The notes under the pieces: model-generated
Seen by the model: the letters and a program-made list of their open reading frames with translations, nothing else
Told to the model about the DNA's origin: nothing
Databases searched by the model: none
Shown: positions 7,733 through 50,040 of the stretch, piece by piece
Layout of the letters: every line of letters begins with the position of its first letter
Position numbering within the stretch: position 1 is the first letter of the stretch
Assembly: GCA_023246715.1 (NCBI GenBank)
Contig: JAHFHZ010000001.1
Span: 48,571 to 112,570 of the forward strand
Direction of reading: 5' to 3'
Length of the DNA stretch: 64,000 nucleotides
Source of the DNA: Candidatus Magasanikiibacteriota bacterium
Lineage (GTDB): Bacteria; Patescibacteriota; Patescibacteriia; Magasanikbacterales; GWA2-37-8
Made by a program: the position numbers and the translations under genes

Positions 7733-7738
7733 CGCTGT

Positions 7739-8809: not shown

Positions 8810-8917
8810 ATCCGTCGACAGGTCTTTGATTTTTATTAGCGTTTACATAACATATTTATTCAGTGCTGGTCGGGCAGTGGCAAGACTCCTTCCGGCAGTT
8901 AGTCTAGTTTATATCGT

Positions 8918-10931: not shown

Positions 10932-10944
10932 TTCCTTATTCAGT

Positions 10945-12075: not shown

Positions 12076-12108
12076 TTGCCTGGTCGCGAAGCAGCTTAAC
12101 CCACCGAT

Positions 12109-29335: not shown

Positions 29336-29344
29336 GCGGTATTT

Positions 29345-30280
29345 ATGGAAGAAAAATCGCGATTGCAACATAAAAAAATTTTGATTACTGGGGGAACCGG
29401 TTTTATTGGTAGTCATTTGGCTCGCCTGCTTAGCCCTACTAACGAGGTATGGGTAGCGGGACGCAGTGGCGAACAACCAAATTCGGCAGTACAATTTTTT
29501 AAGGGTGATATTCGTGAACAGGTTTTTTTTGAATTTGTCCGCAATGAAAATTTTGACGTTATTTTTCATTTGGCTGGTAACGCCAACCAGGCAAAGAGTT
29601 TAGAGGATCCCCGTTATGATTTAGAACACAATCTGCTGGCGACGTTTAATTTACTTGAAGTTTTGCGGCAGCTGCAAAAACCACCGCGTTTAATCAACGC
29701 TTCGTCGGTGACGGTGTATGGAGATAACGACGACGCTGTTCTCAATGAAGACACCTCGGTGCTTTTGCCGATTGTTAACTACGGGGCTTCAAAATTGGCG
29801 GCTGAACGATATTTGTACGCGTACGCACGACAATACGGGTTGCCAGCGATTACTCTGCGGCTTTTTTCTACCTATGGACCCGGGTTGCGTCGTCAAATGG
29901 TTTATGACTTTATCCGCAAGCTTTCGGTTAACCAGGATAGGTTGGAAATTATTGGAACTGGCAATGAGGCGCGAGACCTTACGTTTATTGTTGATCAGGT
30001 AAGTAACATTGTCCGGGTCGCCGAACAGGCGGATTTTAAAGGTGAAGCCTATAATTTGGCTTCGGGTTCTTTATATTCTACCCGTCAGGTAGCCGAATCT
30101 GTGGCTCGAGCGCTCGGCCTAACGCCGGAATTTATCTATACTGAAAAAGCACGAGTTTTTGACGCTCCGAGTTGGCTGGCAGATGTAAATAAAATTAAAA
30201 AATTTGGAGCCTCGACCCCGACTAAACTTGACCATGGCGTTGAACAGACCGTGCGTTGGTTTAAAAATGTAGGTTCCTGA
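29345..30280 (+). CDS. NAD-dependent epimerase/dehydratase (extended SDR)
   Basis: ITGGTGFIGSHL, FHLAG, YGASK, RLFSTYGPG and RDLTF. Confidence 0.9.
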   Translation: MEEKSRLQHKKILITGGTGFIGSHLARLLSPTNEVWVAGRSGEQPNSAVQFFKGDIREQVFFEFVRNENFDVIFHLAGNANQAKSLEDPRYDLEHNLLATFNLLEVLRQLQKPPRLINASSVTVYGDNDDAVLNEDTSVLLPIVNYGASKLAAERYLYAYARQYGLPAITLRLFSTYGPGLRRQMVYDFIRKLSVNQDRLEIIGTGNEARDLTFIVDQVSNIVRVAEQADFKGEAYNLASGSLYSTRQVAESVARALGLTPEFIYTEKARVFDAPSWLADVNKIKKFGASTPTKLDHGVEQTVRWFKNVGS

Positions 30281-30296
30281 GAGCATAACAGTTGCT

Positions 30297-31217
30297 ATGT
30301 CACAGCCTAAAACAATTCTTTTTGGCGGCAGTGGTTTCCTGGGCCCAACTATTTTGGAGAAGTACCCTGATATTGTTTCGATTGGCCGACACGCTCCGCC
30401 AGATTATGTCGGAAACCAGCATATCAATTTGCCAGACTTCGATGATTTAAGCGTCCTAGACAATTTTGATTTTGATAAGGTTATTTTTTTGGTCGGCAGC
30501 TCTAACCACCATCTGATAAATAATCATGCCACCATGGGCCTTGATTATAATGTGTACCCGCTTAAGAAGGCGTTGCATTATTTTGCCAAACGCCAGTTAA
30601 AAAAATTTATTTGTTTTACCACTATTTTGTTATACGATGCCGAAAGAATGACCTTTCCGGTGGGCGAGGAGCAGCCGATCAACCCGTATATCAATGAGTA
30701 TGTTTTTAGCAAATATCTTTCGGAGGAATTGGTACGTTTTTATGCCGAGAAAGTGCCAACTATTACGATCCGTTTTAGTAATATTTACGGCCCGACCAAG
30801 CTGATTCGCCCTGACGTGGTGCCGACCCTGATTCAAAAGGTGCTTTCTCCTAACCCGGTGACTGTTTGGAATACTAAGCCGATTAGGGATTTTTTGTATC
30901 TTGAAGACGCGGCCGAAGCGATTGTGCGGCTACTCGACACAGATTACACCGGGCCCGTCAATTTGGGAACAGGAGTAACGGTTAGTATCGGCCGGATTGC
31001 CGAAATTTTAGAAGAATTATCGGGTAAAAAAATTACCAATCTGGATCAAGCGGTCAACGGGCCAATGTTTTTTTGCTGTGATATCAGCAAGGTGACTAAA
31101 CTGACCGACTGGAAACCGGCGCACACGATCGAAGAGGGATTAAAAAAAACGTATGAACGAATGAAGGGCTGGGCGGATGAGTGTCGGTGGTGGGAACAAC
31201 CCAGTTCTAAATTTTAA
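30297..31217 (+). CDS. NAD-dependent epimerase/reductase (extended SDR)
   Basis: FGGSGFLG, YVFSK, RFSNIYGP, RDFLY and VNLGTG. Confidence 0.85.
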   Translation: MSQPKTILFGGSGFLGPTILEKYPDIVSIGRHAPPDYVGNQHINLPDFDDLSVLDNFDFDKVIFLVGSSNHHLINNHATMGLDYNVYPLKKALHYFAKRQLKKFICFTTILLYDAERMTFPVGEEQPINPYINEYVFSKYLSEELVRFYAEKVPTITIRFSNIYGPTKLIRPDVVPTLIQKVLSPNPVTVWNTKPIRDFLYLEDAAEAIVRLLDTDYTGPVNLGTGVTVSIGRIAEILEELSGKKITNLDQAVNGPMFFCCDISKVTKLTDWKPAHTIEEGLKKTYERMKGWADECRWWEQPSSKF

Positions 31218-31225
31218 ATTTGAAA

Positions 31226-32326
31226 ATGTCTATGAAGCGAATTTTGTTTCTGACCGAGACAATGAATCCGACTTCTGGTTGGGGCAGGATTGCTGACGAA
31301 ATCAGCCGGCGGCTGCCTGACCATGGTTTTGAGCCGGTGGTGCTAACGGAAGACAGCTCGGGATACTTAGGCAAACCATTGTTGCGTAATTCACTGGCCT
31401 CGCTTAAATCAACGCTACTTAATAGTTGGGGCGTTCGCCCCTACGCCAAGGATGCTGTCTTGGTACACGCGCTTGATGCGTATCCGTATGGAATTATTGG
31501 CGCTTTGGCGACGCTGGGCACGCGGGTGCCGCTCGTTATGACTACGGTTGGCACCTACGCCATTATGCCGCTCGAGAATAAAAAAATCCGACCGTTTATG
31601 CTGTGGGCTTTTCGGCGAGCAAAAATGCTTTTTCCGATTGTTAATTTTACCATTGCAGAAATAGCCAAACGTGCTTCGGGGCTGCCTCCCCAAAAACGAG
31701 TGTTGCTCGGGGTAGACCCGAGCCGCTTCCAGCTCGCTCCAATCACGCCAGGCGCAGCAGCGCCAATTTTGTTGAGCGTGGGCGCTTTAAAAAAGCACAA
31801 AGGGTATCATTACGTGATACCGGCTTTGGCAATCGTGAAAAAAACCTGCCCTTTGATACGATATTGTATCGTCGGTGATACTTCGGATACGGCGTATATT
31901 GATTTTTTGAAAGGGGAAATTAAAAAATACGGCGTTGAACAGAACGTGCAAATTTTAGGTAAAATTCCGGAAGGCGAAGTATTGGATCTGTACGGGCGCT
32001 GTTTGGCGTTTGTGTTAATTCCAGAAAATCATCCGACTAATTTTGCGGGTTTCCACCTTACGTATCTGGAAGCAAATGCCATGGGCAAACCGGTCATTGG
32101 AGCGAAAGGATACGGATCGGAAGAAGCCGTCCAGGAAGGAAGAACTGGTTTTTTAATCACGCCGGAAAAGCCCGAAGAAATCGCGGCAGTTATCGGCCGC
32201 CTGATTGTTGAACCGGTTTTGCGAGCTGAGCTGCGTGAGTATTCGCGAGCTTGGGCCGAAGAACTGACGTGGGATAAAACGGTCGCCCAATATGCCGCGT
32301 ATTACCGCGCGATACTTGGAGAATAA
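31226..32326 (+). CDS. GT4 family glycosyltransferase
   Basis: SGWGR, LGVD, VGALKKHKG and GFHLTYLEANAMGKPVIG. Start at 31226 or 31232. Confidence 0.9.
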   Translation: MSMKRILFLTETMNPTSGWGRIADEISRRLPDHGFEPVVLTEDSSGYLGKPLLRNSLASLKSTLLNSWGVRPYAKDAVLVHALDAYPYGIIGALATLGTRVPLVMTTVGTYAIMPLENKKIRPFMLWAFRRAKMLFPIVNFTIAEIAKRASGLPPQKRVLLGVDPSRFQLAPITPGAAAPILLSVGALKKHKGYHYVIPALAIVKKTCPLIRYCIVGDTSDTAYIDFLKGEIKKYGVEQNVQILGKIPEGEVLDLYGRCLAFVLIPENHPTNFAGFHLTYLEANAMGKPVIGAKGYGSEEAVQEGRTGFLITPEKPEEIAAVIGRLIVEPVLRAELREYSRAWAEELTWDKTVAQYAAYYRAILGE

Positions 32327-32387
32327 TTTTTTAGAAGCAATATTTTATTTAAAACAGCCTGTCGAGGCGAAAGTATACTACCAGCCT

Positions 32388-33173
32388 ATGCCCGAAGCGC
32401 CCGTACAACCCAAGCAGAATGACTGGAATTTTCAATGGGAGAATTTTTACGATGATTCTTTGTTTTTGTTTAAGGAATGGATTTTTCCGCATACTTTGGA
32501 AACCTTCCGGGGAAAGAGCGTGGTTGATTGCGGGTGCGGCGGAGGGCAACATATTAATTTTGTCGCCCCCTTTGCCCGTCGAATTATTGGCATTGACTTG
32601 AACACCACCGCAATCGCCCGTGAACACACCGAACAGCACAGCATTGTTTCGTTTGTGGAAGGGGATTTGGCCAGCGTGAGCCTGCCCGAACAGCATGACG
32701 TGGTTTATTGCATTGGCGTTTTACAACATACCACCAACCCGGACGCCACGTTCGCGAATATAAAAAAAATGGTCGCGTCGGGGGGGCGTTTAATGATCTG
32801 GTGTTATTCCAAAGAGGGTAACTGGCCTAATTGGCTTATTTTGGAACCCTTGAAACGTTGCTTTATCCTTAAATTACCTAAACGAGCATTACTGTATTTG
32901 GCTACGGCGCTGACCGCGCTTTTGTACCCTGTTATTTATACGCTGTATTTATTGCCGCTCAGGTTTTTGCCTTATTACGAATATTTTGGTAACTGGCGTA
33001 AATTATCGTTTGGACGGAATCGATTAAATGTCTTTGACAAACTGAACGCGCCCATCACTAATTTTATTACGCGAGTTCAAGTAGAACGTTGGTTTAATCA
33101 GGCTGAATTTTCGGATATCTTTATTGATCAGTATAAAGGAGTGAGTTGGCGTGCTTCGGGTGTTAAATTGTAA
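32388..33173 (+). CDS. Class I SAM-dependent methyltransferase
   Basis: VVDCGCGGG, GIDL, IGVLQHT and GGRL. The ATG at 32388 follows TATACT at 32374-32379. Confidence 0.88.
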   Translation: MPEAPVQPKQNDWNFQWENFYDDSLFLFKEWIFPHTLETFRGKSVVDCGCGGGQHINFVAPFARRIIGIDLNTTAIAREHTEQHSIVSFVEGDLASVSLPEQHDVVYCIGVLQHTTNPDATFANIKKMVASGGRLMIWCYSKEGNWPNWLILEPLKRCFILKLPKRALLYLATALTALLYPVIYTLYLLPLRFLPYYEYFGNWRKLSFGRNRLNVFDKLNAPITNFITRVQVERWFNQAEFSDIFIDQYKGVSWRASGVKL

Positions 33174-33177
33174 AAAT

Positions 33178-34629
33178 ATGCTTGCGGCATTTCGGAATTT
33201 CTATCAAGCCCAGCGCGTGCCAATTATTTTGTTCGTGACGGCATTTGTTTTTCACGCGGCCATGTCGGCTTATTTATACTATCGTTTTGGCGATTCGGTT
33301 TTATGGTTTCAAAATGAAGACGCGCAAGGGTACGTGGAATTGGCGCGTAACGTGCTTACCGGGCGAGGTTTTACCCATGACGGCGCTGCGCTCGCGATTC
33401 GTACCCCGGCGTGGCCGTTGATGCTATCTTTAGGTTTGCTTTTGCCCGGCTCCGCAACAGCAGCAATTTTATTTTTGCAGGTTGTATTGCTGGGGGCTTC
33501 GGGTATTATAATTTATAAAATAGGTGAGTTATTTTTTTCAAAATTTGCCGGGTTAATCGCCTCGACACTCTATATTGTTGAACCTTACTTAGCGATGAAT
33601 ACGGCTTTGGCAACCACTGAAGTTTTTTTTAATTTTGGTTTATTGATAACGGTGTATTGTTTTGGACGTTGGTATCTTCGGCGCGACTCCCAGGCTTGGC
33701 TGGCTGCTTCGGGGCTTTGGCTGGGACTTTGTATTCTTATTCGGCCAGTGGCCTTGTATCTGCCGTTTTTATTTTTGATTTTTATCATCATTCGCCTCCT
33801 GTATTTTAAAAAGAGCACTCTGTCATTACTGGTTAGTTTGTTTATCCTAAGCGCCACTACCACATTGGTGGTGGCGCCATGGTCGATTCGCCAGTATATC
33901 CGTTTTGGTACTCCGCGCATTACCAATATTGACGCGATGTTATTATACTTTCGGGTGGCGCCGCTGGTTATCGGCGCTGAACAAGGCATTAGCTATAACG
34001 CGGCGATTCAGCAGTTGCACGGCGAATTGGAGCGTTCGGTTGAGCTTTATAATCCTGATGATTTAAATGCTAATTTTGTTCATTATGAATTCATGAGCGC
34101 AAGAGTGGCGGAATTGGTTCGTCAACGCCCAGATGTGGTAGCAAAAAGTTATTTGGCTTCAATGGTACCGGCCCTGTTTGGTACGGGTTACGAATATATG
34201 TTGGAAGAAGTGCTTGGTTTAGAGCGCGCCACGCAACGCCCCAGCTACTCCGCGCTGTTAGCTCGGGGAGATTTCGCTGCTTATTTTAGGGCTCTTCGCC
34301 AAATCGATATTTTTCAAGCTGTTTTATTAACTGGCGCGCTGTTGTGGATGGCTGCTTACGTATTTATTGTTTATTACGTAACCCGCAGGTTTGTTTGGAG
34401 AGAACGTTTTTTGAGTTTAGTGCTGCTCGGAGGCCTGCTTGGTTATTTTGTTTTTTTTGCGTTGGGCCCTGCCAGCCACGCCCGTTATCGCTTACCTACA
34501 TTTCCGTGGTGGTTTCTACTTATTGGCGCCAGCCTTGATTTTATTAAGCAAAAGCGTATACTAGGCTCACGCAAAGAGGCTGCTTCTTTTGGCCTTAATA
34601 AGCCTTTTATCCCCGGCCAGACCCCTTAA
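33178..34629 (+). CDS. GT-C (ArnT/PMT-2-like) membrane glycosyltransferase
   Basis: EDAQGY..LA loop, RTPAWP, TTE, LIRP, PWSIR and ARYRLP. Confidence 0.78.
   Translation: MLAAFRNFYQAQRVPIILFVTAFVFHAAMSAYLYYRFGDSVLWFQNEDAQGYVELARNVLTGRGFTHDGAALAIRTPAWPLMLSLGLLLPGSATAAILFLQVVLLGASGIIIYKIGELFFSKFAGLIASTLYIVEPYLAMNTALATTEVFFNFGLLITVYCFGRWYLRRDSQAWLAASGLWLGLCILIRPVALYLPFLFLIFIIIRLLYFKKSTLSLLVSLFILSATTTLVVAPWSIRQYIRFGTPRITNIDAMLLYFRVAPLVIGAEQGISYNAAIQQLHGELERSVELYNPDDLNANFVHYEFMSARVAELVRQRPDVVAKSYLASMVPALFGTGYEYMLEEVLGLERATQRPSYSALLARGDFAAYFRALRQIDIFQAVLLTGALLWMAAYVFIVYYVTRRFVWRERFLSLVLLGGLLGYFVFFALGPASHARYRLPTFPWWFLLIGASLDFIKQKRILGSRKEAASFGLNKPFIPGQTP
34535..34562 (+). promoter_or_regulatory. Putative internal sigma70 promoter upstream of the GT2-acpS-FkbH cassette
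   Basis: TTGATT (34535-34540), 16-nt spacer, TATACT (34557-34562). Confidence 0.4.
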
Positions 34630-34634
34630 TTTAT

Positions 34635-35486
34635 ATGCAAAAAATTTCAGTTATTCTGCCTGCTTACAATGAAGAATTGGGGATTGCTAAAGTTCTTTCT
34701 CGGCTTAAGGAAGTTTTGGCTAACGCCCCAGATTCGGAAATACTGGTTGTTAATGATGGGTCAACAGACGCCACGGCCAGCATTGCCATGGCCCATGGAG
34801 CGCGGGTAATTTCTAATCCAACCAACATGGGTTATGGATTTTCGTTGAAGCGTGGTTTTGTGGCCGCGGTTAACGAATGCGTGGTGATTACCGATGCGGA
34901 TGGCACGTATCCAATTGAGCGTTTGCCGGATTTAGTCGCTGAATTTGATAAGGGCTTGGATTTGGTGGTGGGCGCGCGCCAGGGTGCCAATTATTGGTCT
35001 AGTTGGACCAAGGGTTTTGCTCGTTTGTGCTTTAAATGGATGAGTCAATTTGTCGTGGGCAAGCGGATTCCCGATATTAATTCGGGTTTTAGAGTCATCC
35101 GCCGCAGCAAAATTGTGCCGGTTTTGAACGATCTTTCTAACGCTTTTTCATTTACCACCTCAATGACCTTGATTTTTTTCTTGAAGCATTATTTCATCCG
35201 TTATTTGCCAATTAGTTACGAACAAAGACAAGGTCGGTCTAAAGTGCACTACTTCCGCGATACATTAATCACCTTGCAGATTCTGGCCGATATTATCGCT
35301 CGCTATAACCCAATAAAATTATTTTTATTGCTGGCGTTGTTTCCTTTCGCGCTGATGTTGGTTTGTTTGGTTTTCGCGTTGGTTTGGGGGGTGTGGCTCT
35401 GGTTGCCACTGGCCTTTTTGGCCGGCTTTGGCGCGTTGTTGATTGTCGCGCTTGGTTTTATTGCCACAATTTTTAGACGCAATTAG
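34635..35486 (+). CDS. GT2 polyprenol-phosphate glycosyltransferase with two C-terminal TM helices
   Basis: LPAYNEE, VNDGSTD, NMGYG, TDADGTY, VGAR and DINSGFR. Confidence 0.9.
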   Translation: MQKISVILPAYNEELGIAKVLSRLKEVLANAPDSEILVVNDGSTDATASIAMAHGARVISNPTNMGYGFSLKRGFVAAVNECVVITDADGTYPIERLPDLVAEFDKGLDLVVGARQGANYWSSWTKGFARLCFKWMSQFVVGKRIPDINSGFRVIRRSKIVPVLNDLSNAFSFTTSMTLIFFLKHYFIRYLPISYEQRQGRSKVHYFRDTLITLQILADIIARYNPIKLFLLLALFPFALMLVCLVFALVWGVWLWLPLAFLAGFGALLIVALGFIATIFRRN

Positions 35487-35488
35487 GT

Positions 35489-35866
35489 ATGGCTGGTTCG
35501 AAGGCGCGAGCGCAGCTTGGGGTGGGAGTTGATATCGAAGAAGTTACCCGATTTACAAAACGCTCTTCCCGGGCGTTTAAATTATTTTTAAAACGTTTGT
35601 TTACTGATCAAGAATTGACCTACTGTTTCGAGCGAACTCGGACAGCGGAGCATTTAGCGGCCCGTTTCGCCGCCAAAGAAGCAATTATTAAAGCGCTGGC
35701 AATACTTGGTTTTGCCCCTCCTGATTATCAGCAGATTGAAATTAGGATGAATGGAAAGTTGCCGACGGTTTGCCTGTATGATAGTTCTTTAAAGCCGTAT
35801 CGTGTTTTAATCAGTTTGTCACATACTCGTACCTTGGCTATGGCTTTTGCAGTAATTACTGCCTAA
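35489..35866 (+). CDS. acpS: Holo-[acyl-carrier-protein] synthase (phosphopantetheinyl transferase)
   Basis: GVGVDIEEV, FTDQE, HLAARFAAKEA and ISLSHT. Confidence 0.92.
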   Translation: MAGSKARAQLGVGVDIEEVTRFTKRSSRAFKLFLKRLFTDQELTYCFERTRTAEHLAARFAAKEAIIKALAILGFAPPDYQQIEIRMNGKLPTVCLYDSSLKPYRVLISLSHTRTLAMAFAVITA

Positions 35867-35870
35867 TCAT

Positions 35871-37682
35871 ATGGAAGAAATTATTCGACATGTTGAAATT
35901 AACAACCCTCAAAGCATTACTGATTATCGGCGATTGGCCCGAGAGCTGGTGGCTAACTTTGAATCATCTTGGCAGGGTGCTGTGGAATTGCGTTTAGCAG
36001 TGCTCGCGAGTTTTACCTTAAAAGGTTTGGCCGATATTTTGTTTGTGGAATGCGCTCGGCAAGGTATTAAAACTGAGGTATACCTGGGGGAATACAATCA
36101 GTACGCGCAAGAAATTTTGAATCCAACGAGCGGTTTGCATAGCTTTAAACCCTCGGCCGTGGTGCTATTTATAGATACTCAAGCGCTTTTGGGTGAAGCG
36201 TATTTCCGCCCCTACGGGAGTTTGCAGGCCGCCGACCGGCGTCTGCTTATTGATGAAAAACTTGCCGAAACGCAGCAGTACGTTCAAATACTTCGTGAAC
36301 GAACGGGCGCGGTGGTGATCGTGCATAACGCCGAGGTTCCGGGCTACTCGCCGCTGGGTATTTTGGAAGCCAAACAAGAGTTTGGAATTGTTGAAGCCGT
36401 TGAATCTTTTAACCGCCGTCTGAATGAGTTTTACAAATCAGTCAGTGATGTTTTCGTATTTGATTATAATGCCTGGTGCTCGCGGTGGGGAAAAAGCAAG
36501 CTCGTTGATTATCCTTTGTATTATTTAGGAGATTTTCGTCTCGGATTAGAGCATTTGGCAGAATTGGCCCGGGCTTATTTACATTTTATCAAACCGCTCG
36601 CGGCAAAAATTAAAAAGTGTATCGTGCTAGATCTGGACAATACGCTCTGGGGAGGGGTAGTTGGAGAAGATGGGGTGGAAGCTCTCCGGCTTGGCCCAAC
36701 CCCGGAAGGGCGGCCATTTTGGGAATTTCAAAAATATCTTTTAGCCCTTTTGGAGCGAGGAGTGATTCTGGCCATTAACAGTAAAAATAATCTCGAGGAT
36801 GCCCTGCGCGTTTTGCGCGAGCATCCGCATATGATCTTGCGCGAACAACATTTTGCCGCTCTGGCAATCAATTGGAACGACAAAGCCACTAATTTAAAAC
36901 AACTCGCCGAAGAACTCAATATCGGCTTAGATAGTCTGGTATTCATCGATGATGACGCGGCCAATCGAGCGCTTGTTCGGGAATCTTTGCCCCAGGTAGA
37001 AGTCGTGGAGCTCCCGAAAGATCCTAGCCGATACGCGTCGACCCTCAAGGATTTGAATTCTTTTCAGACCCTTAGTTTTACTACTGAAGACGCCGTTAAA
37101 GGAAAAATTTACGCTGCCGAGCGAGAACGCCGTGAATTTCAGAATGTTGCCAGCGACTTAAGCGGATTTTTACGCGGCCTCGGCATGGCTGTAACGGCGC
37201 GAGCGGCCGACGCCTTTTCTTTACCGCGTCTGGCGCAATTGACGCAAAAGACCAATCAGTTTAATCTAACCACGCGCCGCTATCGCGAAGAGCAGTTGGC
37301 TGAATTGGCCAATCGGCCAGATCGTTTGGTGCTTGGTGTTGAAGTAAAAGATCGTTTTGGTGATAACGGGTTGGTGGGAGTGGCGATAGTCGAGAAAACT
37401 CCTCAAGTTTGGAATATTGATACGTTTTTGTTGAGTTGTCGCGTAATTGGGCGGGGAGTGGAGCAAGCGTTGGTGGGTCTGCTAATCAACCGTGCCCGTG
37501 AAGCCGGTGTTGAGTTTTTAACGGGTGAGTTCATTGCCACTAGCAAAAATGCTCCGGCCAAAGATTTTTATGCCTTGAACGGTTTTAAATTGCAGTGGCA
37601 GCGAGATGGCGTGGAGAGCTGGCAATATGCGATCGAGCAGCCTTTTATAATTCCGGATTATCTTACTCTGGTAGAAAATTAA
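35871..37682 (+). CDS. FkbH-like HAD-IIIC glyceryl-ACP-forming phosphatase/transferase
   Basis: KCIVLDLDNTLWGGVVGEDG (HAD DxD), SKNN, INWNDK, FIDD, QLTQKTNQFNLTTRRY, DRFGDNG and FLLSCRV. Confidence 0.93.
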   Translation: MEEIIRHVEINNPQSITDYRRLARELVANFESSWQGAVELRLAVLASFTLKGLADILFVECARQGIKTEVYLGEYNQYAQEILNPTSGLHSFKPSAVVLFIDTQALLGEAYFRPYGSLQAADRRLLIDEKLAETQQYVQILRERTGAVVIVHNAEVPGYSPLGILEAKQEFGIVEAVESFNRRLNEFYKSVSDVFVFDYNAWCSRWGKSKLVDYPLYYLGDFRLGLEHLAELARAYLHFIKPLAAKIKKCIVLDLDNTLWGGVVGEDGVEALRLGPTPEGRPFWEFQKYLLALLERGVILAINSKNNLEDALRVLREHPHMILREQHFAALAINWNDKATNLKQLAEELNIGLDSLVFIDDDAANRALVRESLPQVEVVELPKDPSRYASTLKDLNSFQTLSFTTEDAVKGKIYAAERERREFQNVASDLSGFLRGLGMAVTARAADAFSLPRLAQLTQKTNQFNLTTRRYREEQLAELANRPDRLVLGVEVKDRFGDNGLVGVAIVEKTPQVWNIDTFLLSCRVIGRGVEQALVGLLINRAREAGVEFLTGEFIATSKNAPAKDFYALNGFKLQWQRDGVESWQYAIEQPFIIPDYLTLVEN

Positions 37683-37689
37683 TTGCAGT

Positions 37690-37923
37690 ATGGAAAAATT
37701 ATATTCGCTAGTAGCTAAGGTGTTAGACATTGAAGCGCTTACAATTACCCCTGAAACTTCACCGGATACTGTGGAAAATTGGGATTCATTTAACGGTTTA
37801 ATGCTGGTTTCCGAGTTAGAGAATGTTTTTGGCGTTAAATTTACCATGGATGAAATTGTGGCAGTTAAAAAGGTGGGTGATATTACCGAGGCGTTGAAGC
37901 GCCACGGCGTTGAGTTGGAATAA
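37690..37923 (+). CDS. Acyl carrier protein
   Basis: 77 aa and acidic, with the WDSF phosphopantetheine Ser motif and ELENVFGVKF. Confidence 0.9.
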   Translation: MEKLYSLVAKVLDIEALTITPETSPDTVENWDSFNGLMLVSELENVFGVKFTMDEIVAVKKVGDITEALKRHGVELE

Positions 37924-37925
37924 GT

Positions 37926-38327
37926 ATGCGTTTTCAGGATATCGTTATCGGGAGTGTGTGTCAATTTGAACGCCAAATCAATGTGGATGACGGGCTTTCT
38001 TTTGCCAAGCTCACCGGTGATACCAACCCCTTACATACCAGCGCTGAATTTGCTGAACAGTCGCCTTTTGGGCGAACAATCGTGCACGGCTTGTTGATTG
38101 GTGGTTTGTTTTCTACTTTAGTTGGTGTGCACTGCCCGGGTGATAATTGTTTATATGTCAGCCAGACTTTACAGTTTAAAGCGCCCGTTTTTTATGGAGA
38201 CGTGGTAGTAATTCGCGGCATCGTGACCGATAAGCATGACAGTATTAGCATGGTCCGAATGAAGACAGAAGCCTTGGTGAATGGGGAAGTCAAAGTAACT
38301 GGCGAGGCGGTGGTAAAAGTGCTTTAA
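37926..38327 (+). CDS. MaoC/PhaJ-family hot-dog dehydratase
   Basis: FAKLTGDTNPLH, IVHGLL and FKAPVFYGD. Confidence 0.92.
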   Translation: MRFQDIVIGSVCQFERQINVDDGLSFAKLTGDTNPLHTSAEFAEQSPFGRTIVHGLLIGGLFSTLVGVHCPGDNCLYVSQTLQFKAPVFYGDVVVIRGIVTDKHDSISMVRMKTEALVNGEVKVTGEAVVKVL

Positions 38328-38339
38328 TTTTTTGAATAT

Positions 38340-39074
38340 ATGTCTGAACAAAAAACAGTGGTGGTAATCGGAGGTAGCGGCGGGATTGGTCGGGCGATCG
38401 TAGACGTTTTGATGAAAGACGAGTTTATCGTTCACGCGACTTTTTTTAGCCAAGACGAGCTTCTACATAAAGCGAGCGGGGCAGATAGATTGTTCTGGCA
38501 TAAATTAGACGCGACGGAGGCGGTGGCAGTTGCGGACTTGTGGAAGGTTATTTTGAAAACTTCGCCGACTATTAATGGGGTTGTTTTTGTCGCAACGCTG
38601 CCTACCGCATATCATCCCTTAATGAAACTGGATTGGAAAGATTTTACCGCGCATTTTAATGTTCAGGTCGGAACCTTTTTTCATACTCTGGCGGCTTTGC
38701 GCGAAAATTTGTCGGCAATCGGACCATGTCAGTTTATTCCGATTTTGACTGAGTACTGCCAAGGTCGACCCCCGGCTGGTTTAAGCGATTATGTTGCCGC
38801 TAAGATGGCTCTACAGGGTTTTGCTCGCACTATGGTGGCAGAGTTGGCCAAGTACGGTTGCCGGGTAAATATGATTTCGCCGGGGATTACGCTTACTGAA
38901 TTAACCAGTTCGCTGCCACCTAAATTTTTAGAAATTGCCGCTGAACAGAATCCGCTCAAGCGACTAGCGCAGAGCACAGACGTGGCGGCCGTGGTGAAAT
39001 TTTTATTATCTGAACAAGCGGCATACTTGAATGGCGTCAATATTCCGGTGAATGGTGGGTCGACAGTACAATAA
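38340..39074 (+). CDS. SDR oxidoreductase (FabG-like ketoreductase)
   Basis: GGSGGIG, YVAAK, VNMISPG, NPLKR and YLNGVNIPVNGG. Confidence 0.88.
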   Translation: MSEQKTVVVIGGSGGIGRAIVDVLMKDEFIVHATFFSQDELLHKASGADRLFWHKLDATEAVAVADLWKVILKTSPTINGVVFVATLPTAYHPLMKLDWKDFTAHFNVQVGTFFHTLAALRENLSAIGPCQFIPILTEYCQGRPPAGLSDYVAAKMALQGFARTMVAELAKYGCRVNMISPGITLTELTSSLPPKFLEIAAEQNPLKRLAQSTDVAAVVKFLLSEQAAYLNGVNIPVNGGSTVQ

Positions 39075-39100
39075 CTCATTTTGTCACGGGCTTATTTGTT

Positions 39101-40579
39101 ATGCTTTTTAATTCACTTCAATTTTTGATTTTTTTCCCGGTTGTGACCGTGCTGTATTTTGCATTACAGCATCGATTTCGCTGGATTTTATTATTATTGT
39201 CGAGCTGCTATTTTTACATGGCGTTTGTTCCCAAGTATATCTTGATCCTGTTTGCGGTTATTTTGATTGATTACTTCATGGGGTTGGCGATCGCGCGGGA
39301 ATCTAATCTGCAGAGAAAAAAGGCCTTTCTATTGATCAGCATTGTGGCCAACATAGGCATTTTGTTTGTTTTTAAATATTTTAATTTTTTTAACGCCAAC
39401 TTTACTGCCCTGGCCGAAATGATTGGCTGGAATTATCCCATCAAACATTTAGCGCTTATTTTGCCCATTGGCTTGTCTTTCCATACTTTTCAGAGCCTGA
39501 GCTATATCATTGAAGTGTACCGCGGCAATTACCCGGCCGAGCGCCGTTTAGGCATTTATGGCCTGTACGTCTTATTTTTTCCGCAACTAGTGGCCGGCCC
39601 GATTGAGCGTCCACAGCATATTTTGCCCCAGCTGCATATTGAACAACGGTTTGATTTTACGCGTGTTGCTTCTGGGTTGCGCCTCATGCTGTGGGGTTTG
39701 TTCAAGAAAATTGTCATCGCCGATAATTTAGCGGTGGTTGTATCCCAGGTGTATGATTATCCGTCACAGTTTGCGGGAGCCCATTTTATCGTAGCTACCG
39801 TCGCTTTTTCCATTCAGCTTTTTTGTGATTTTTCGGGGTACTCGGATATTGCCATCGGCAGCGCGCGTGTTCTGGGTATTCGTTTAATGCAGAATTTTAA
39901 CCGACCATATAGCGCGCCATCAATTACGGAATTTTGGAAGCGCTGGCATATTTCACTTACCAGCTGGTTTCGTGATTATGTCTATTTGCCGCTCGCGCGT
40001 TTCAAAGTAACTCCAATTTGGCTATATGCCGCGACGATTATTGTTTTTACCCTGAGTGGTTTATGGCATGGCGCTAACTGGACTTTTGTTGTTTGGGGGC
40101 TCTACCACGGAATCTATATGACTGTTTCTTTGGCTACGCGGAGGATTAGGGCGCGGATAGTTAAACTACTTCATCTTAATGCTTGGCCCCGATTACACCG
40201 AGCAATTCGAGTAGCCACAACTTTTTCGTTGGTCAGTATCTCGTTCATTTTTTTTCGAGCAACATCATTGTCCGATGCGTGGTATATGGTATCTCATTTG
40301 AGCGAAGGGTTAATGGCAACCTTTGGCTCATTGTTCAACCCGCTTAATCTTTCGGGTTTTATTGAATCCCTTGGCATTAGTCCTTTTACTTTTTTACAAG
40401 TACTGATTGCCGTGGCGCTGCTTACGACCGTTTATACTTTGAAAGCCAAGACAACAGCGTTTTTACGTTTTGATGCTGCTCCACCCTGGGTGCGTTGGAG
40501 TGTTTATAACGCGTTGATTATGTGGATTATATTTTTTGGTTACTTTGGCGAGCAACCGTTTATTTATTTTCAGTTCTAG
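39101..40579 (+). CDS. MBOAT O-acyltransferase (AlgI/DltB/PatA family)
   Basis: MLFNS, LPIGLSFHTFQ, FFPQLVAGPIER, DFSGYSDIA, FWKRWHISL, SGLWHGANW and a C-terminal FIYFQF. Confidence 0.95.
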   Translation: MLFNSLQFLIFFPVVTVLYFALQHRFRWILLLLSSCYFYMAFVPKYILILFAVILIDYFMGLAIARESNLQRKKAFLLISIVANIGILFVFKYFNFFNANFTALAEMIGWNYPIKHLALILPIGLSFHTFQSLSYIIEVYRGNYPAERRLGIYGLYVLFFPQLVAGPIERPQHILPQLHIEQRFDFTRVASGLRLMLWGLFKKIVIADNLAVVVSQVYDYPSQFAGAHFIVATVAFSIQLFCDFSGYSDIAIGSARVLGIRLMQNFNRPYSAPSITEFWKRWHISLTSWFRDYVYLPLARFKVTPIWLYAATIIVFTLSGLWHGANWTFVVWGLYHGIYMTVSLATRRIRARIVKLLHLNAWPRLHRAIRVATTFSLVSISFIFFRATSLSDAWYMVSHLSEGLMATFGSLFNPLNLSGFIESLGISPFTFLQVLIAVALLTTVYTLKAKTTAFLRFDAAPPWVRWSVYNALIMWIIFFGYFGEQPFIYFQF

Positions 40580-40581
40580 CT

Positions 40582-41784
40582 ATGCCCAGCTGGAAAACAA
40601 TCCGTAGCGCGGTTGGCCAACTATGGCTGGTTTTTTTGGCCGGACTTTTATGTTTAGGGGTGGTAGAGGGGGCGCTCCGGCTTAAGAGTCGATGGGGGGA
40701 ACAGCGTGGTTACCGGGTAACCCAGCCAAATGGTTTGGTCACGCTTGAGCCAGCTTTGGATACCCTTATTCGCGGCAGTACCGGCGAGTTGATTCATTTT
40801 AAAACTAATCACGAAGGGTTCGCGAGCGAAAATCACGCGGTGGTGGCTGCCACGGGCACTAAACGAATTGCTTTTTTAGGTAATTCTTTTACTCAGGGAA
40901 CAGATGTTGATTACGAGAAAAAAATGACGACGCTTATTCAGCGTTTATATCCCAAAACCAGTGACGGCCAAAAAGTTGAAATAATGAATTTTGCCATTGG
41001 CGGCTATAGCATCGTTGAACAAATGGTGCTTTACAATGAATATGTACGCAAATATCGCCCAGCGGCCGTGATTCTAGTATCTTATGTGGGCTATGATTTT
41101 TCAACTAACCTTCGTTTTTTACCTGAACAAAAAATCATCCTGGAAGGCGATATTCAGGCCCTCACGGCTGCAACGGTGAAACAAGCCACGGATGCTTTTA
41201 CCAAACAACAGCAAACACTCAAGAATCGACTGGTCGCGACATTCGAGGTGGTGCGGTTTTTGATCCGACTGACTCAGGAAAACCAAACGCTTAACACGGC
41301 CGCGGTTAACCTCGGGTTGCTTAAGCAACCATTTAGCGAGCAGGCTGCGAACTATTTGACTGACATTTGGGCTTATTTTAATCCTAATTCCGCGCCACAC
41401 CGCGAAGTAATGGAATTTACGGCCGCGACGATTAAGCGTTTGCAAAGCCAGATAACCAGAGACGGGGCTTCTTTTGGTCTGGTGCTTATTCCAAGTTATT
41501 GGCAGGTTAACGAAAAATATATTGCACAGCTTAAGGCAAAGCACATCCCTTTGCAGCTCGACTTGCCGAACACTACCCTTAAAAAACAACTCAATAACGC
41601 ATTGCCAATTTTAGATTTATCCACGCCGATTTATCGAGCATTGAACACGGAGCGTACCCCCATTTTTATTAAAGATATAGGCCATTTCACCGAGCAGGGC
41701 AATAGCTTGGCAGCGGAACAAATCGTTGAATTTTTGAAAGCCAATGAGTTTCAATTGCGGCTGAAACGCCCGGGCAAAAATTGA
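40582..41784 (+). CDS. SGNH/AlgJ-like extracytoplasmic acyltransferase with an N-terminal membrane anchor
   Basis: TM helix plus EGALR, RIAFLGNSFT (GDS-like), NFAIGGY and DIGHFT (DxxH); follows the MBOAT gene. Confidence 0.78.
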   Translation: MPSWKTIRSAVGQLWLVFLAGLLCLGVVEGALRLKSRWGEQRGYRVTQPNGLVTLEPALDTLIRGSTGELIHFKTNHEGFASENHAVVAATGTKRIAFLGNSFTQGTDVDYEKKMTTLIQRLYPKTSDGQKVEIMNFAIGGYSIVEQMVLYNEYVRKYRPAAVILVSYVGYDFSTNLRFLPEQKIILEGDIQALTAATVKQATDAFTKQQQTLKNRLVATFEVVRFLIRLTQENQTLNTAAVNLGLLKQPFSEQAANYLTDIWAYFNPNSAPHREVMEFTAATIKRLQSQITRDGASFGLVLIPSYWQVNEKYIAQLKAKHIPLQLDLPNTTLKKQLNNALPILDLSTPIYRALNTERTPIFIKDIGHFTEQGNSLAAEQIVEFLKANEFQLRLKRPGKN

Positions 41785-41809
41785 CTTTCTGCCTTGTGAC
41801 AGGTATATA
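41781..41809 (+). promoter_or_regulatory. Putative sigma70 promoter
   Basis: TTGACT (41781-41786), 17-nt spacer, TATATA (41804-41809). Confidence 0.4.
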
Positions 41810-41833
41810 TCAGTACACAGCTAAACTATTTTT

Positions 41834-43360
41834 ATGAAAGCCTGCATTTTTCTGCAAGGACAATATAGCAAACTCGGCCATGCTCTAGCGCGGGTTTTAA
41901 AAGAACAGCATGGCGTGACGGAATTTTGCGCCTATGTCTATTCATTGGGGGCTGCGGAATTCGTTCGCCAGGGCCAGTCGGACATTGCTTATAATCCGAT
42001 TTTAGTTGACCATGAGCTCCACGAACGTTTTCGGGCTGAGCAGATTGATTTACAATTCCTTGAACGTTTCGAGCATGAGTATGGCACGCCGCATTTATGG
42101 AAGTATTTATATGCGGATCGAAAATTGCTTATGTCAATTGGGCCTAAGGAAGAAACAACCGCCGTAATTGATCCGTTGTATGAACACGATGATTTACTGC
42201 GTATTTTTCAGAGTCGCGCGCGAGCGATTGAAGAAATGTTGCTTAAAGAACGACCAGATTTTGTTTTTTTCTTTGCTATTGGTGCAATTGGCAACATGCT
42301 GGTATATCATGTGGCTAAAAAATTAGGTATTCGTATTTTTACGATTGATTTTCCGCGGATCGGGAATTGGATTTCACTTTCTTCGGATTACAATACGCTC
42401 ACGGGGATTGAAGAGGGATTCAAATCTATCCGCGCTGGCCGTGATAACGAGCCAGTCCGGCAGAACGTGCGAAAATTCCTGACGGAGTTTCGCGCCACCG
42501 GTAATTTGAATTTAGAATATATTAAAATTGCCCAGCAGCTTAACCCGATGAAAGCGCCGTCATTTTTACATCCTAAACGGTTGCTCCGCACCTTTAAATA
42601 CTTGATCACCCTCACCAGAAATTGGTTAAAGAATCGCCAGCTGTTTGTGTATGGTGAAACCCATCTGAACCCTTTGCGTTTTGTTTGGTATAACAGCATT
42701 CGTAAATTCCGCCGTGCCCGAGGATTGGATGACTTGTATACGCAGCCGGTAGCTGGCGAAGAATATGCTTTTTTCCCGTTGCATTATGAGCCGGAGCTAT
42801 CAATTTTAGTGCTTTCGCCATTTTATTTTGATCAGCTTAACCTGATTCGGATAATTGCCCGGTCGTTGCCGGTACACATGAAGCTGTATGTGAAGGAACA
42901 CCCCTCGATGATTTTCCGTCGTTCGCGTAAGTATTACAAAGACTTGCTCAAAATTCCAAATGTTCGCCTGGTGCCGCACACTATTAAAAGTTTTGAGTTA
43001 ATTAAAAATTCTAAGTTGGTAACGGTAATTTCGAGTAGTGCTGGATGGGAGGCGTGTTTGCTTAAGAAGCCGCTCATTAGTTTTGGCGAAGTCTTCTATA
43101 ACGCTTTGCCCTTTGTGCGGCGTTCACGTACGCCGGATGATTTGCCAGAGTTAATTAAGGATCGTTTGGAGCATTTTGATTACGATGAGAAGACGTTGGA
43201 AGATTTTTTGGTCGCCACGTTTGAGGAGTCTTTTCCGTTTGATTACGCTGGATTATGGTATCAGAATGACATTGCAGCTTTGATGAAAGACGCGGGGGTA
43301 CAGGCCATTGCTCAGCGCGTCATGAAGCGCGTGAAAAGTTTAAACAGCCAGGCGGCTTAA
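41834..43360 (+). CDS. Capsule-biosynthesis (KpsS/LipB-like) protein, candidate CMP-nonulosonate transferase
   Basis: FFPLHYEPE, YVKEHP and VISSSAGWEA.LLKKP are typical of the Capsule_synth-type fold; adjacent to the NulO pathway. Confidence 0.72.
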   Translation: MKACIFLQGQYSKLGHALARVLKEQHGVTEFCAYVYSLGAAEFVRQGQSDIAYNPILVDHELHERFRAEQIDLQFLERFEHEYGTPHLWKYLYADRKLLMSIGPKEETTAVIDPLYEHDDLLRIFQSRARAIEEMLLKERPDFVFFFAIGAIGNMLVYHVAKKLGIRIFTIDFPRIGNWISLSSDYNTLTGIEEGFKSIRAGRDNEPVRQNVRKFLTEFRATGNLNLEYIKIAQQLNPMKAPSFLHPKRLLRTFKYLITLTRNWLKNRQLFVYGETHLNPLRFVWYNSIRKFRRARGLDDLYTQPVAGEEYAFFPLHYEPELSILVLSPFYFDQLNLIRIIARSLPVHMKLYVKEHPSMIFRRSRKYYKDLLKIPNVRLVPHTIKSFELIKNSKLVTVISSSAGWEACLLKKPLISFGEVFYNALPFVRRSRTPDDLPELIKDRLEHFDYDEKTLEDFLVATFEESFPFDYAGLWYQNDIAALMKDAGVQAIAQRVMKRVKSLNSQAA

Positions 43361-44286
43361 CGGCCCGCCAACGAGAATATAATCACTGTGCCACCGGTGC
43401 AAAGCGCGCCGAGCCAGTCCCGGCGGTAAAAATTTTTTCGTTCACCAAACACCAACAATCCGAGCACCACGCCACTCAATACGGTGAGCACGTCGTGCAC
43501 GGAGAGTACGATAACCCCAGGGCCAAGTGAAAGCGCCCAGTAGGTGAGGCCAAGTGTAGTAACGGTAGTGCAGCCGAGGATCGGCAAGATCAGATAAGTA
43601 GTTTTTCTCAGTGGGGAAGCGCCGATAACTTGCGGCGCTTTTTTATTTTGTTTGCTAAACCAGGCGCTGATTAGTCGTATAAGAACAGTCGCGGCAAAAG
43701 CCGCTGGGTACCAGGAGGCAAGAAAAATATCCGTGGGGATTGCTTTGAGAGAAAAAAATTTTAAAAGGAAGTTTACCACTCCCCAAATCACCACGGCGCT
43801 ACCAGCGTAGTATGCCCAGGCACCGTCCGCTTGCGCCTGCCCGGCAGGAGTTGTTTGGGGGCCGGAAGTGGCAAAACAGGTTAATGCCGCAAACGCCATT
43901 ATTATGCCGGCAATGCGGAGCATCCCATTGGCGGTAGTGGGATTAAGCAGGGACCATTCGCCCAGAAAAATTGCGATGAGGACTATGCCTAGGACGGCTA
44001 TTAGGGGGCGTGTTAACACGGAGCGCGTTAAATTGATCCGAATCGCTTTTAAAAAAAACCAAGCTCCTAGCGCATTTATCCCCGCCACGGAGGCTATTAG
44101 CAGTGAATTTTCCGAAAAAACCATTTCTTTCCGCACAGCCAGGTGATAGCCAACGGCGAGTATCGCGGCGGTGCCGAAGGCGCCGAGCGTGATTGAAACC
44201 GCAGGAAGACGGTTGGCAAGGTATTTTTGTATATACTGATGGGCGGCTTCTACCGTTATCAGTAGCCCAAGAGCTATCCAGAGCAT
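43357..44286 (-). CDS. EamA/DMT-superfamily membrane transporter
   Basis: About 10 TM helices in two repeats ending IFLGE and LVFGE. Confidence 0.75.
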   Translation of the reverse strand: MLWIALGLLITVEAAHQYIQKYLANRLPAVSITLGAFGTAAILAVGYHLAVRKEMVFSENSLLIASVAGINALGAWFFLKAIRINLTRSVLTRPLIAVLGIVLIAIFLGEWSLLNPTTANGMLRIAGIIMAFAALTCFATSGPQTTPAGQAQADGAWAYYAGSAVVIWGVVNFLLKFFSLKAIPTDIFLASWYPAAFAATVLIRLISAWFSKQNKKAPQVIGASPLRKTTYLILPILGCTTVTTLGLTYWALSLGPGVIVLSVHDVLTVLSGVVLGLLVFGERKNFYRRDWLGALCTGGTVIIFSLAGR

Positions 44287-49506: not shown

Positions 49507-50040
49507 ATGCGGCTTAGTGATTTGCGCCCGATGATTCAAACTTCCCGGTTAGGTCTACGCAAATTGACCCTTGAAGACGCCAATGAGCGGTATGTTGGCT
49601 GGTTGAATGACCCTGAGGTAAACGTCTACTTGGAAACGCGAACCGCCACGGTACAGGGTATCCGCGATTATATTGATAAAAAATCAAGTAGCGATACAGC
49701 TTTGCTGCTTGGTATTTATTGGCAACAGAATGATGACTTTATTGGTACGGTGAAACTGGAACCGATTGATTTTGCCACTGGAGTGGCGACAATGGGTATT
49801 TTGATTGGCGATAAAGTTTATTGGGGCAAGGGGGTAGCTACCGAAGTGGTGAATGCTATTACTGAGTATGCTTTTAATAGCTTGGGCCTTTCTGAAGTGA
49901 ATTTAGGGGTACTCGGCGCGAACTTGCCAGCTATCCGGGTCTATGAAAAGTGTGGTTTTGCTACGTATCAAGTTGACAAAAATGCCCGACAACACGGCGA
50001 CGCCACGTACGATCAGGTGTGGATGCGGCGTAACAAATAA
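49507..50040 (+). CDS. GNAT N-acetyltransferase (RimJ/PseH-like)
   Basis: YVGWLNDPEV, GILIGDKVYWGKGVATE and NLPAIRVYEKCGF. Confidence 0.88.
   Translation: MRLSDLRPMIQTSRLGLRKLTLEDANERYVGWLNDPEVNVYLETRTATVQGIRDYIDKKSSSDTALLLGIYWQQNDDFIGTVKLEPIDFATGVATMGILIGDKVYWGKGVATEVVNAITEYAFNSLGLSEVNLGVLGANLPAIRVYEKCGFATYQVDKNARQHGDATYDQVWMRRNK

Follow-up and report, generated by a model that had tools for sequence, protein, structure and literature searches.

We analysed a 64,000-nucleotide stretch of the genome of a Candidatus Magasanikiibacteriota bacterium (positions 48,571 to 112,570 of contig JAHFHZ010000001.1, assembly GCA_023246715.1), which we call the window. Seven genes at 35489-41784 of the window probably encode a self-contained relay, in which an acyl carrier protein (ACP) would feed an MBOAT (a membrane-bound O-acyltransferase) together with its SGNH-fold partner and thereby equip a surface glycan with a glycerate-derived C3 ester that is most probably lactyl. 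We favour this reading of the sequence because of a clade of MBOATs encoded next to ACP genes, a split version of the cassette in a related genome (G158), a difference in one short segment of the MBOAT, and the lack in this genome of homologs of the AAC(3)-like, c5 and c11 transferases, and also because no other use of the carrier can be read from the genome.

The seven open reading frames (ORFs) are all on the + strand, with intergenic gaps of 2-26 nt. The first (35489..35866, 125 aa) codes for an AcpS-type 4'-phosphopantetheinyl transferase (PF01648, 54 bits; TIGR00556, 69 bits). It is followed by an FkbH-type loader of 603 aa (35871..37682) composed of FkbH_N, a phosphatase domain of the HAD-IIIC type and, at the C-terminus, a transfer domain that contains Cys523; this protein scored 313 bits against TIGR01686, for which the curated cutoff is 146.65. 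Its D254-L-D256-N-T and S522-C523-R524 motifs were invariant in an alignment with 15 relatives; DxDxT is the HAD phosphatase motif, and the Cys serves covalent catalysis in OzmB/FkbH proteins. The gene for the stand-alone ACP (37690..37923, 77 aa; PP-binding, 29 bits) begins 7 nt 3' of the FkbH gene, and Ser33 lies in a WDS motif whose three residues (W31, D32 and S33) were kept in 32 aligned relatives. Next are a MaoC-type single-hotdog dehydratase (37926..38327, 133 aa; PF01575, 69 bits; motif G-D32-T-N-P-L-H37) and a short-chain dehydrogenase/reductase (SDR; 38340..39074, 244 aa; adh_short_C2, 109 bits) with G11-G-S-G-G-I-G17 and Y151-x-x-x-K155. The MBOAT, of PatA/AlgI type (39101..40579, 492 aa; PF03062, 90 bits), ends in FIYFQF, and its catalytic His323, within W322-H323-G324, was invariant in 32 relatives and aligned with His336 of DltB. 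The last gene (40582..41784, 400 aa) encodes an AlgX-like SGNH-fold partner. A transmembrane helix is located at its N-terminus, it matches the Pfam families ALGX and GDSL weakly, and its G-N-S102 and D365-x-x-H368 motifs are intact.

Domain matches and ORF positions agree with the original prediction, which had described seven tightly packed, co-oriented genes in this interval, and the motifs it listed for the phosphopantetheinyl transferase, FkbH, ACP, MaoC, SDR, MBOAT and SGNH proteins were all found intact in translations or alignments. The SGNH gene is present too, and only its start was corrected: the most likely start is not GTG 40522 but ATG 40582, 2 nt past the MBOAT stop codon, which yields a protein opening with the transmembrane helix. 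Genes of the same families were contiguous and in the same order in genome G211 and in metagenome contig L150, and occurred in another order in G158; because of this recurrence, the arrangement is more than chance. A scan for promoters and terminators gave counts at chance level.

From the observed gene content, motifs, uniqueness of the genes in the genome and comparative links, we infer every chemical step of the relay, its acyl group, its acceptor and the transfer itself, as follows. AcpS would prime the genome's sole ACP on Ser33, and FkbH would dephosphorylate the glycolytic intermediate 1,3-bisphosphoglycerate and load glyceryl onto the carrier. Glycerate loading of this kind by FkbH-ACP pairs is described as established chemistry in the relevant passages of PMC7489565, and by analogy the window FkbH is predicted to make glyceryl-S-ACP. 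The MaoC hotdog protein is predicted to dehydrate glyceryl-ACP by stripping the 3-hydroxyl, giving pyruvoyl-ACP, which the SDR is predicted to reduce to lactyl-ACP; the latter function was assigned because of the analogy with dehydratase-ketoreductase (DH-KR) proteins, which part of a review (PMC4765723) reports to turn glyceryl- into lactyl-S-ACP in FR901464 and lankacidin biosynthesis. The acyl-ACP would then dock at the cytoplasmic face of the MBOAT, where His323 would pass the acyl group to Tyr489 of FIYFQF at the outer face. Finally, the membrane-anchored SGNH protein would take the acyl group on Ser102 and esterify a hydroxyl of the glycan made by the surrounding glycosyltransferase genes. 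Another fate of the loaded acid, oxidation of the methoxymalonyl type, was considered and rejected: as described in PMC7489565, in the part that concerns this pathway, it needs FkbK/FkbI-type dehydrogenases and a methyltransferase, and none of these is encoded in the cassette.

The genome assembly (1.06 Mb, 44 contigs, 92.8% complete) was searched with profiles for other users of the carrier. Neither ketosynthase nor FabH gave any match in the whole genome. The PP-binding profile PF00550 had a single match, the cassette ACP, as did the ACP family profile A3, and the single ACPS match was the cassette AcpS, which is the only phosphopantetheinyl transferase found. Similarly, FkbH and MBOAT each matched once, in both cases the cassette gene. 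These results confirmed two earlier claims. One was that no ketosynthase or polyketide synthase (PKS) takes part; the genome check for fatty-acid-synthesis genes gave none, and the only ACP and AcpS are those of the cassette. The other was that a dedicated AcpS points to a host without fatty-acid synthesis, which fits a genome of candidate phyla radiation (CPR) type. Genes for GAPDH and PGK are present; therefore 1,3-bisphosphoglycerate is made and the FkbH substrate should be available. A phmmer search of the genome with two ligase queries found no homologs of AMP-binding ligases, which leaves FkbH as the only loader candidate. Besides, the MBOAT is the only protein in the genome with a C-terminal FXYXXF in a transmembrane context.

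This FXYXXF motif (F487-I-Y489-F-Q-F492) is located directly before the stop codon of the MBOAT. According to those parts of PMC12148441 that treat the acyl-shuttle motif, PatA auto-acetylates the Tyr of its FXYXXF from acetyl-CoA, after which the acyl group moves to a Ser of PatB, its SGNH partner; DltB is described there as being without the motif, which is supplied by the microprotein DltX, and MBOAT/SGNH pathways other than Dlt are stated to lack a carrier protein. Against the DltB model TIGR04091, the window MBOAT scored 167 bits, below the cutoff of 375. Because of the fused FIYFQF and a score far under the DltB cutoff, its sequence was classified as PatA/AlgI-type by architecture and not as DltB-type. 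Thus, the Dlt-like relay from carrier to MBOAT and SGNH that had been predicted was supported by gene comparison, but in one respect it had to be revised: the membrane enzyme is of PatA/AlgI type with a fused shuttle.

Among the 401 genomes sampled across the phylum, relatives of the MBOAT turned up in 24, and 79 metagenome loci out of at least 597 relatives were examined in addition. In a FastTree phylogeny of 101 MBOATs, the window protein and those of L150, G211 (locus L109) and G206 (locus L108) formed one clade with an SH-like support of 0.92, or 0.95 without G206, and the sister groups of this clade were not ACP-adjacent. All four MBOATs are encoded directly behind AcpS/ACP genes. The order in G211 is AcpS, a short FkbH, ACP, MaoC, SDR, MBOAT and partner, and the L150 contig, which begins inside the ACP gene, continues with MaoC, SDR, MBOAT and partner. 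G206 has an AMP-binding enzyme, an alpha/beta hydrolase and an inositol-phosphate-synthase-like protein, followed by AcpS, ACP, MBOAT and partner; its loader is thus the AMP-binding enzyme and not FkbH, as in the Dlt layout. The clade and these gene orders together indicate that carrier adjacency was kept through approximately 50% divergence and through a change from FkbH to an adenylating loader. The G206 run (G206:C1:473500-493400, 5173-13347) also includes a GT2 gene (glycosyltransferase family 2) and an inositol monophosphatase gene after the partner, and judged by its genes it would be a Dlt-like system next to inositol genes. Three more MBOAT lineages abut FkbH cassettes, namely the short MBOAT of G158 and two archaeal ones, L013 (Nitrosopelagicus) and L075 (Micrarchaeota), which form separate deep branches and have an SGNH-like gene just upstream of each. 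A class-level search of the 401 genomes found no further members of the ACP-linked clade above 47% identity.

G158 is the genome of a different genus within the same family as the window. Its locus (L229, G158:C2:16000-34000) encodes on one strand, in this order, a carbamoyltransferase, an SGNH homolog, a second SGNH-like protein, a short MBOAT, AcpS, FkbH, a 53-aa microprotein, ACP, MaoC, SDR and a 41-aa microprotein. The SGNH homolog matches the window SGNH protein at E 6e-45, and the MBOAT, at 395 aa, stops before the shuttle motif. The 53-aa membrane microprotein, encoded between FkbH and ACP (L229 9654-9815, - strand), ends in PFIYTLF and is a clear member of DUF5989 (78 bits), and the 41-aa microprotein ends in VFIYNNF and has a Pfam DltX match at E 7e-4, below cutoff. 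DUF5989 proteins may be shuttle microproteins like DltX, and the locus reads as a split, truly Dlt-like version of the cassette. Shuttle microproteins that lie among the loader and carrier genes would be difficult to account for if the carrier system and the MBOAT did not cooperate. The ACP of this locus was missed by PF00550 and was found by family profile A3 at E 3e-23; PF00550 by itself is thus not sufficient to call this ACP family absent.

A further difference was seen between the RDYxY and GLWHG motifs of the MBOATs, where 91 of 102 aligned proteins contain (P/S)(L/I/M)GG(N/S)(R/Q). The window MBOAT reads LPLARFKV in this segment (297-304), at which most relatives read PLGGNR. Ten other proteins are also non-GG: L108, L109, L150, the G158 short form, L013, L075, L175, L188, L158 and L204. 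All seven carrier-linked MBOATs belong to this non-GG set, and the motif was kept by 91 of the 95 MBOATs that have no directly adjoining carrier gene. For L175, a 691-aa protein with AMP-binding and PP-binding domains is encoded 1.3 kb from the non-GG MBOAT. A lenient profile search found no ACP near GG-type MBOATs, although an adenylase-GNAT-ACP-LbH group is located 4.7-7 kb upstream of the GG-type L135. Counted by sequences, carrier linkage was found for 8 of 11 non-GG and 0 of 91 GG-type proteins (Fisher p ~1e-9), and the p value was still ~5e-6 with five independent lineages and L135 taken as a carrier case; these p values are descriptive only, because the relatives are non-independent and the rule was found post hoc, by eye. 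In a HMMER alignment, DltB of Streptococcus thermophilus has MRLVIVLMRNKVFKNR (302-317) at this segment, with no GG motif. Passages of PMC11035591 describe that Met302, Val305, Ile306, Met309 and the tip residue Lys312 of the DltB horizontal helix HC, together with Arg317 of TMH8, contact DltC at the cytoplasmic tunnel entrance. The segment would therefore be located at approximately the place expected for a donor switch, and its equivalence with helix HC is approximate because the DltB alignment is gapped there. In L115 (G209:C6:20300-40200, 9263-13968), genes for a homolog of the window SGNH protein and for an acetyl-CoA synthetase flank that of a GGNR-type MBOAT; judged by gene content, this CPR genome would thereby have an O-acetylation unit that makes its own supply.

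The SGNH partner was modelled with AlphaFold2 (pLDDT 92.2). The model has a transmembrane helix at residues 4-39 and an SGNH fold with a helical insertion, and its Foldseek matches included GDSL esterases, DltD (6pfx, rank 8) and PatB (7tlv, rank 27). The family is large, with 5120 representatives at E <= 1e-3. In 46 relatives, Ser102 was nearly invariant (>=90%) and His368 invariant. When the window protein itself was used as a phmmer query, none of 82 ORFs directly downstream of related MBOATs was detected, as these are too divergent for pairwise search; a profile built from the 46 members found proteins right after six other MBOATs as well as the G158 homolog. On the basis of this model, the SGNH partner is predicted to be an extracytoplasmic acyltransferase.

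The distribution of the loading half of the cassette is much wider. FkbH relatives numbered 7982 at E <= 1e-10, with approximately 50% identity, and a scan of one genome per species found them in at least 591 species of bacteria and many archaea; archaeal hosts of FkbH-ACP include Nitrososphaeria, Asgard, DPANN and Methanosarcinales. Across these species the module often has an AcpS of its own, and in most cases acyltransferase genes (LbH, AAC(3)-like or GNAT-like) and amino-sugar genes are its neighbours. The best 80 loci were examined within +/-10 kb of FkbH. ACP was present in 75 of these, AcpS in 21, MaoC in 32 and SDR in 25 (the SDR profile also picks up unrelated reductases), MBOAT in two, each directly adjoining the cassette, and an SGNH relative in one. 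MaoC directly adjoins FkbH/ACP in many relatives, and the MaoC+SDR pair is found beside FkbH-ACP in L004, L019, L021, L056, L057, L060, L074, G158, G211, G350, G125 and L150. The commonest neighbour, just upstream of FkbH in 27 of the 80 loci, is an acyltransferase of ~190 aa with hexapeptide repeats (LbH); a 376-aa protein is encoded just past ACP in 16 loci, and DegT aminotransferases occur in 15. For example, the two closest FkbH relatives, from archaeal loci L003 and L004, have an AAC(3)-like N-acetyltransferase after MaoC or SDR, and Saccharibacteria L060 and CPR genomes G350 and G125 have a GNAT-like gene (c15) after SDR. The slot after ACP-MaoC(-SDR) holds the MBOAT in the window, G211 and L150. 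Because the acyltransferase family after the module varies between loci, FkbH-ACP is a portable acyl-donor unit with exchangeable outlets, of which the usual one looks like amino-sugar N-acylation by soluble, presumably cytoplasmic, enzymes, and the MBOAT a rare one. A survey of co-occurrence had been suggested earlier; the seven gene families were seen together in G211 and G158, and those from ACP to the partner in L150, but this did not extend to FkbH loci at large.

Profile searches of the window's genome for these other outlets found no homolog of the AAC(3)-like, c5 or c11 transferases, one weak LbH match (contig C30, E 2e-4) and, for the c15 GNAT-like profile, nothing but ACP. When the phylum was searched with the ACP profile, 10 additional ACP loci came up, and an MBOAT within ~8 kb was seen in none of them. 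Four of the ACP loci seen in the phylum (L252, L258, L259 and L260, in G260, G302, G228 and G081) encode divergent ACPs between conserved ORFs of ~230 aa and ~135-165 aa; with no FkbH, AcpS or MBOAT within ~8 kb, they would, from these neighbourhoods, represent another carrier-protein system.

Several observations weigh against the proposed relay, and part of them fit a different explanation, which we consider unlikely, that two independent modules happen to be neighbours. The MBOAT-SGNH pair would then be an O-acetyltransferase of PatA/PatB or AlgI/AlgJ kind using acetyl-CoA, and FkbH-ACP-MaoC-SDR would feed a soluble transferase, for example one that N-acylates a nonulosonic acid or amino sugar. 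The window MBOAT keeps the PatA-type architecture, and PatA-type MBOATs with fused FXYXXF use acetyl-CoA, as stated in the corresponding passages of PMC12148441. It also differs little from its GG-type relatives, with four unremarkable clade-specific alignment columns. Most close MBOAT relatives have no carrier nearby: an ACP cassette is directly upstream of the MBOAT in 1 of 79 metagenome loci and 2 of 20 CPR loci, and when the G158 short MBOAT is added, carrier linkage is seen in 3 of the 23 CPR genomes that, besides the window's own, gave an MBOAT match. Conversely, 78 of the 80 FkbH loci have no MBOAT, and FkbH-ACP(-MaoC-SDR) is elsewhere paired with soluble N-acyltransferases, the usual neighbours being LbH (27), DegT (15), AAC(3)-like and GNAT-like proteins. 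Members of two of these families are encoded in the window itself, a GNAT at 49507-50040 and a DegT aminotransferase at 28091-29335, and the GNAT and the nonulosonic-acid (pseudaminic-type) genes, which run from 44383 onward, are 2.6-8 kb downstream of the cassette. As to the GG segment, the rule was noticed after the data had been viewed, the comparison with helix HC involves a gapped alignment, and L188, L158 and L204 are non-GG with no carrier visible in their short flanks; in addition, PP-binding had no match in 83 of 98 small free-standing ORFs within 3.5 kb of GG-type MBOATs, and the remaining 15, partial ORFs at contig edges, were unscanned. CoaE was not found in the 92.8%-complete genome, although AcpS needs CoA, and the substrates of MaoC and SDR are assumed by analogy. 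Two unconnected modules are nevertheless difficult to reconcile with an ACP-adjacent clade that retained its adjacency despite ~50% divergence and a change of loader, with the absence of GG(N/S)R from all seven carrier-linked MBOATs, and with the shuttle microproteins that are interleaved with the FkbH, ACP and SDR genes of G158. The soluble AAC(3)-like, c5 and c11 transferases used elsewhere are also missing from this genome. Furthermore, the supply of acetyl-CoA is in question, since no ACS-like ligase, Pta or PFOR N-domain was found in the 92.8%-complete assembly, in which pyruvate dehydrogenase was not searched for.

The carrier-fed relay could also operate with another cargo or another acceptor. 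It seems improbable that it exports glyceroyl or pyruvoyl, with MaoC and SDR acting on a different substrate or only one of them acting on the ACP-bound acid. Many FkbH-ACP loci, including most of those in Acidobacteriota, have neither MaoC nor SDR, and in many archaeal loci no SDR gene adjoins that of MaoC; therefore, all three products seem to be used in nature. N-glyceroyl sugars are known as well, such as Pse5Am7Gra of Tannerella forsythia, as mentioned in part of PMC5378307. In the window, however, both MaoC and SDR are intact and lie between ACP and MBOAT with the short gaps given above, and at least 12 loci have a MaoC+SDR pair next to FkbH-ACP. We regard it as quite improbable that the acceptor is something other than a polysaccharide, such as a glycolipid or lipid-linked intermediate, a teichoic-acid-like polymer, peptidoglycan or the glycan of a glycoprotein. 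Known MBOAT-SGNH systems acylate peptidoglycan, alginate, cellulose and teichoic acids, as listed in the sections of PMC12148441 on these systems, and the SGNH partner of the window differs from those of the closest MBOAT relatives, which suggests that acceptors change. Besides, the five GT-C (PMT_2-like) enzymes of the region could glycosylate proteins or lipids outside the membrane. The sole positive hint at a glycan is that genes for sugar modification and for glycosyltransferases surround the cassette in one co-directional run (28091-43360).

Compared with known systems, the proposed relay resembles Dlt in having an AcpS-primed, dedicated carrier encoded beside an MBOAT and an SGNH-fold partner, in lacking GG(N/S)R at the position of the DltB helix HC where DltC docks, and, in its relative G158, in the split form with a short MBOAT and FXYXXF-ending microproteins. 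It differs in its loader, which is an FkbH acting on a glycolytic intermediate and not an adenylating DltA, in its acyl group, predicted to be a hydroxy acid and not an amino acid, and in two tailoring enzymes that are predicted to act on the carrier-bound acid. Also, the shuttle motif is fused to the window MBOAT, the genome encodes no separate FXYXXF microprotein, and the host falls outside the Firmicutes. With PatA/PatB, AlgI/AlgJ(X) and WssH, the cassette shares an MBOAT of ~490 aa that has the catalytic His and carries FXYXXF fused at its C-terminus, followed by the gene for a membrane-anchored SGNH protein with Ser and His, so that a transfer from acyl-Tyr to acyl-Ser is predicted. In contrast to those systems, which use acetyl-CoA and no carrier according to the same portions of PMC12148441, it contains AcpS, loader and ACP in the operon, and the GG(N/S)R kept by most relatives that have no adjoining carrier gene is replaced. 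The FkbH with its HAD and Cys motifs and dedicated ACP is similar to polyketide loaders (FK520 FkbH, and Mad7/Mad8 of tetronate biosynthesis), and the predicted dehydratase and reductase are placed for conversion of glyceryl- to lactyl-ACP as for the lactyl starters of FR901464 and lankacidin. However, the genome has no ketosynthase, PKS or nonribosomal peptide synthetase, the two tailoring enzymes are a free-standing MaoC hotdog protein and a free-standing SDR, and the predicted fate of the product is export as an ester of an envelope polymer and not use as a starter unit.

The run that contains the cassette is part of a glycan island that occupies nearly the whole window, to ~58 kb. The island contains GT1 and GT2 glycosyltransferases, sugar epimerases, DegT, methyltransferases, a Wzx-like flippase and the five GT-C (PMT_2) genes, located at 6041-7732, 9603-10931, 14648-15988 (- strand), 21747-23189 and 33151-34629; several of these adjoin small GT2 genes. 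The presence of five GT-C genes in one island suggests that polyprenyl-phosphate sugars are used to assemble much of the glycan on the outer side of the membrane. Just one long hairpin that resembles a terminator was seen in the region (43610-43647, + strand; 15 pairs and a T run); it is found ~250 nt past the end of the co-directional run, within a convergent ORF (43357-44286).

Literature searches, which had subscription-only papers outside their reach, returned no paper on this system among those that name both FkbH and polysaccharide, and papers naming both FkbH and MBOAT concerned aeruginosin-type peptides, which are unrelated. According to an excerpt of the literature, an FkbH-domain gene, cj1302, is part of a Campylobacter flagellar glycosylation locus. 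For MBOAT, SGNH and carrier protein together, the matches listed dealt with PatAB, Dlt, AT3 proteins, cellulose and a survey of the superfamily. The relevant part of PMC12148441 describes the carrier-fed route so far just for D-alanine in the Dlt system of Gram-positive bacteria, the other pairs using acyl-CoA. A carrier-fed MBOAT-SGNH system that is like Dlt, but has an FkbH loader, tailoring on the carrier and a PatA-type MBOAT, would thus be a further form of a known kind of system.

In bacteria, MBOAT-SGNH pairs are the main route to acylation of envelope polymers. This modification influences how cells withstand lysozyme and cationic peptides, how their biofilms behave and how they are recognised by the immune system. 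Together with its relatives, the cassette speaks for a second branch of this route that is fed by a carrier and has a different loader and a different acyl class. In its most general form, which we put forward tentatively and with slightly less than even confidence, this would be a second class of carrier-fed transmembrane acylation besides Dlt in bacteria and archaea, in which PatA-type or split MBOATs were retuned repeatedly and independently to acyl-ACP through replacement of GG(N/S)R at the cytoplasmic tunnel entrance, and in which interchangeable loaders, FkbH or adenylating, would enable cells whose acyl-CoA metabolism is limited or missing to decorate their envelope with esters of glycolytic lactate or glycerate. 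If this is true, the presence or absence of the GG segment would be a simple sequence marker predicting the donor type of bacterial MBOATs, and FkbH chemistry, familiar from the assembly lines that make antibiotics, would be linked to the decoration of surface glycans in hundreds of species of uncultured bacteria and archaea. It would also mean that a genome-reduced symbiont without the acetyl-CoA-forming enzymes that were searched for could still esterify its surface.

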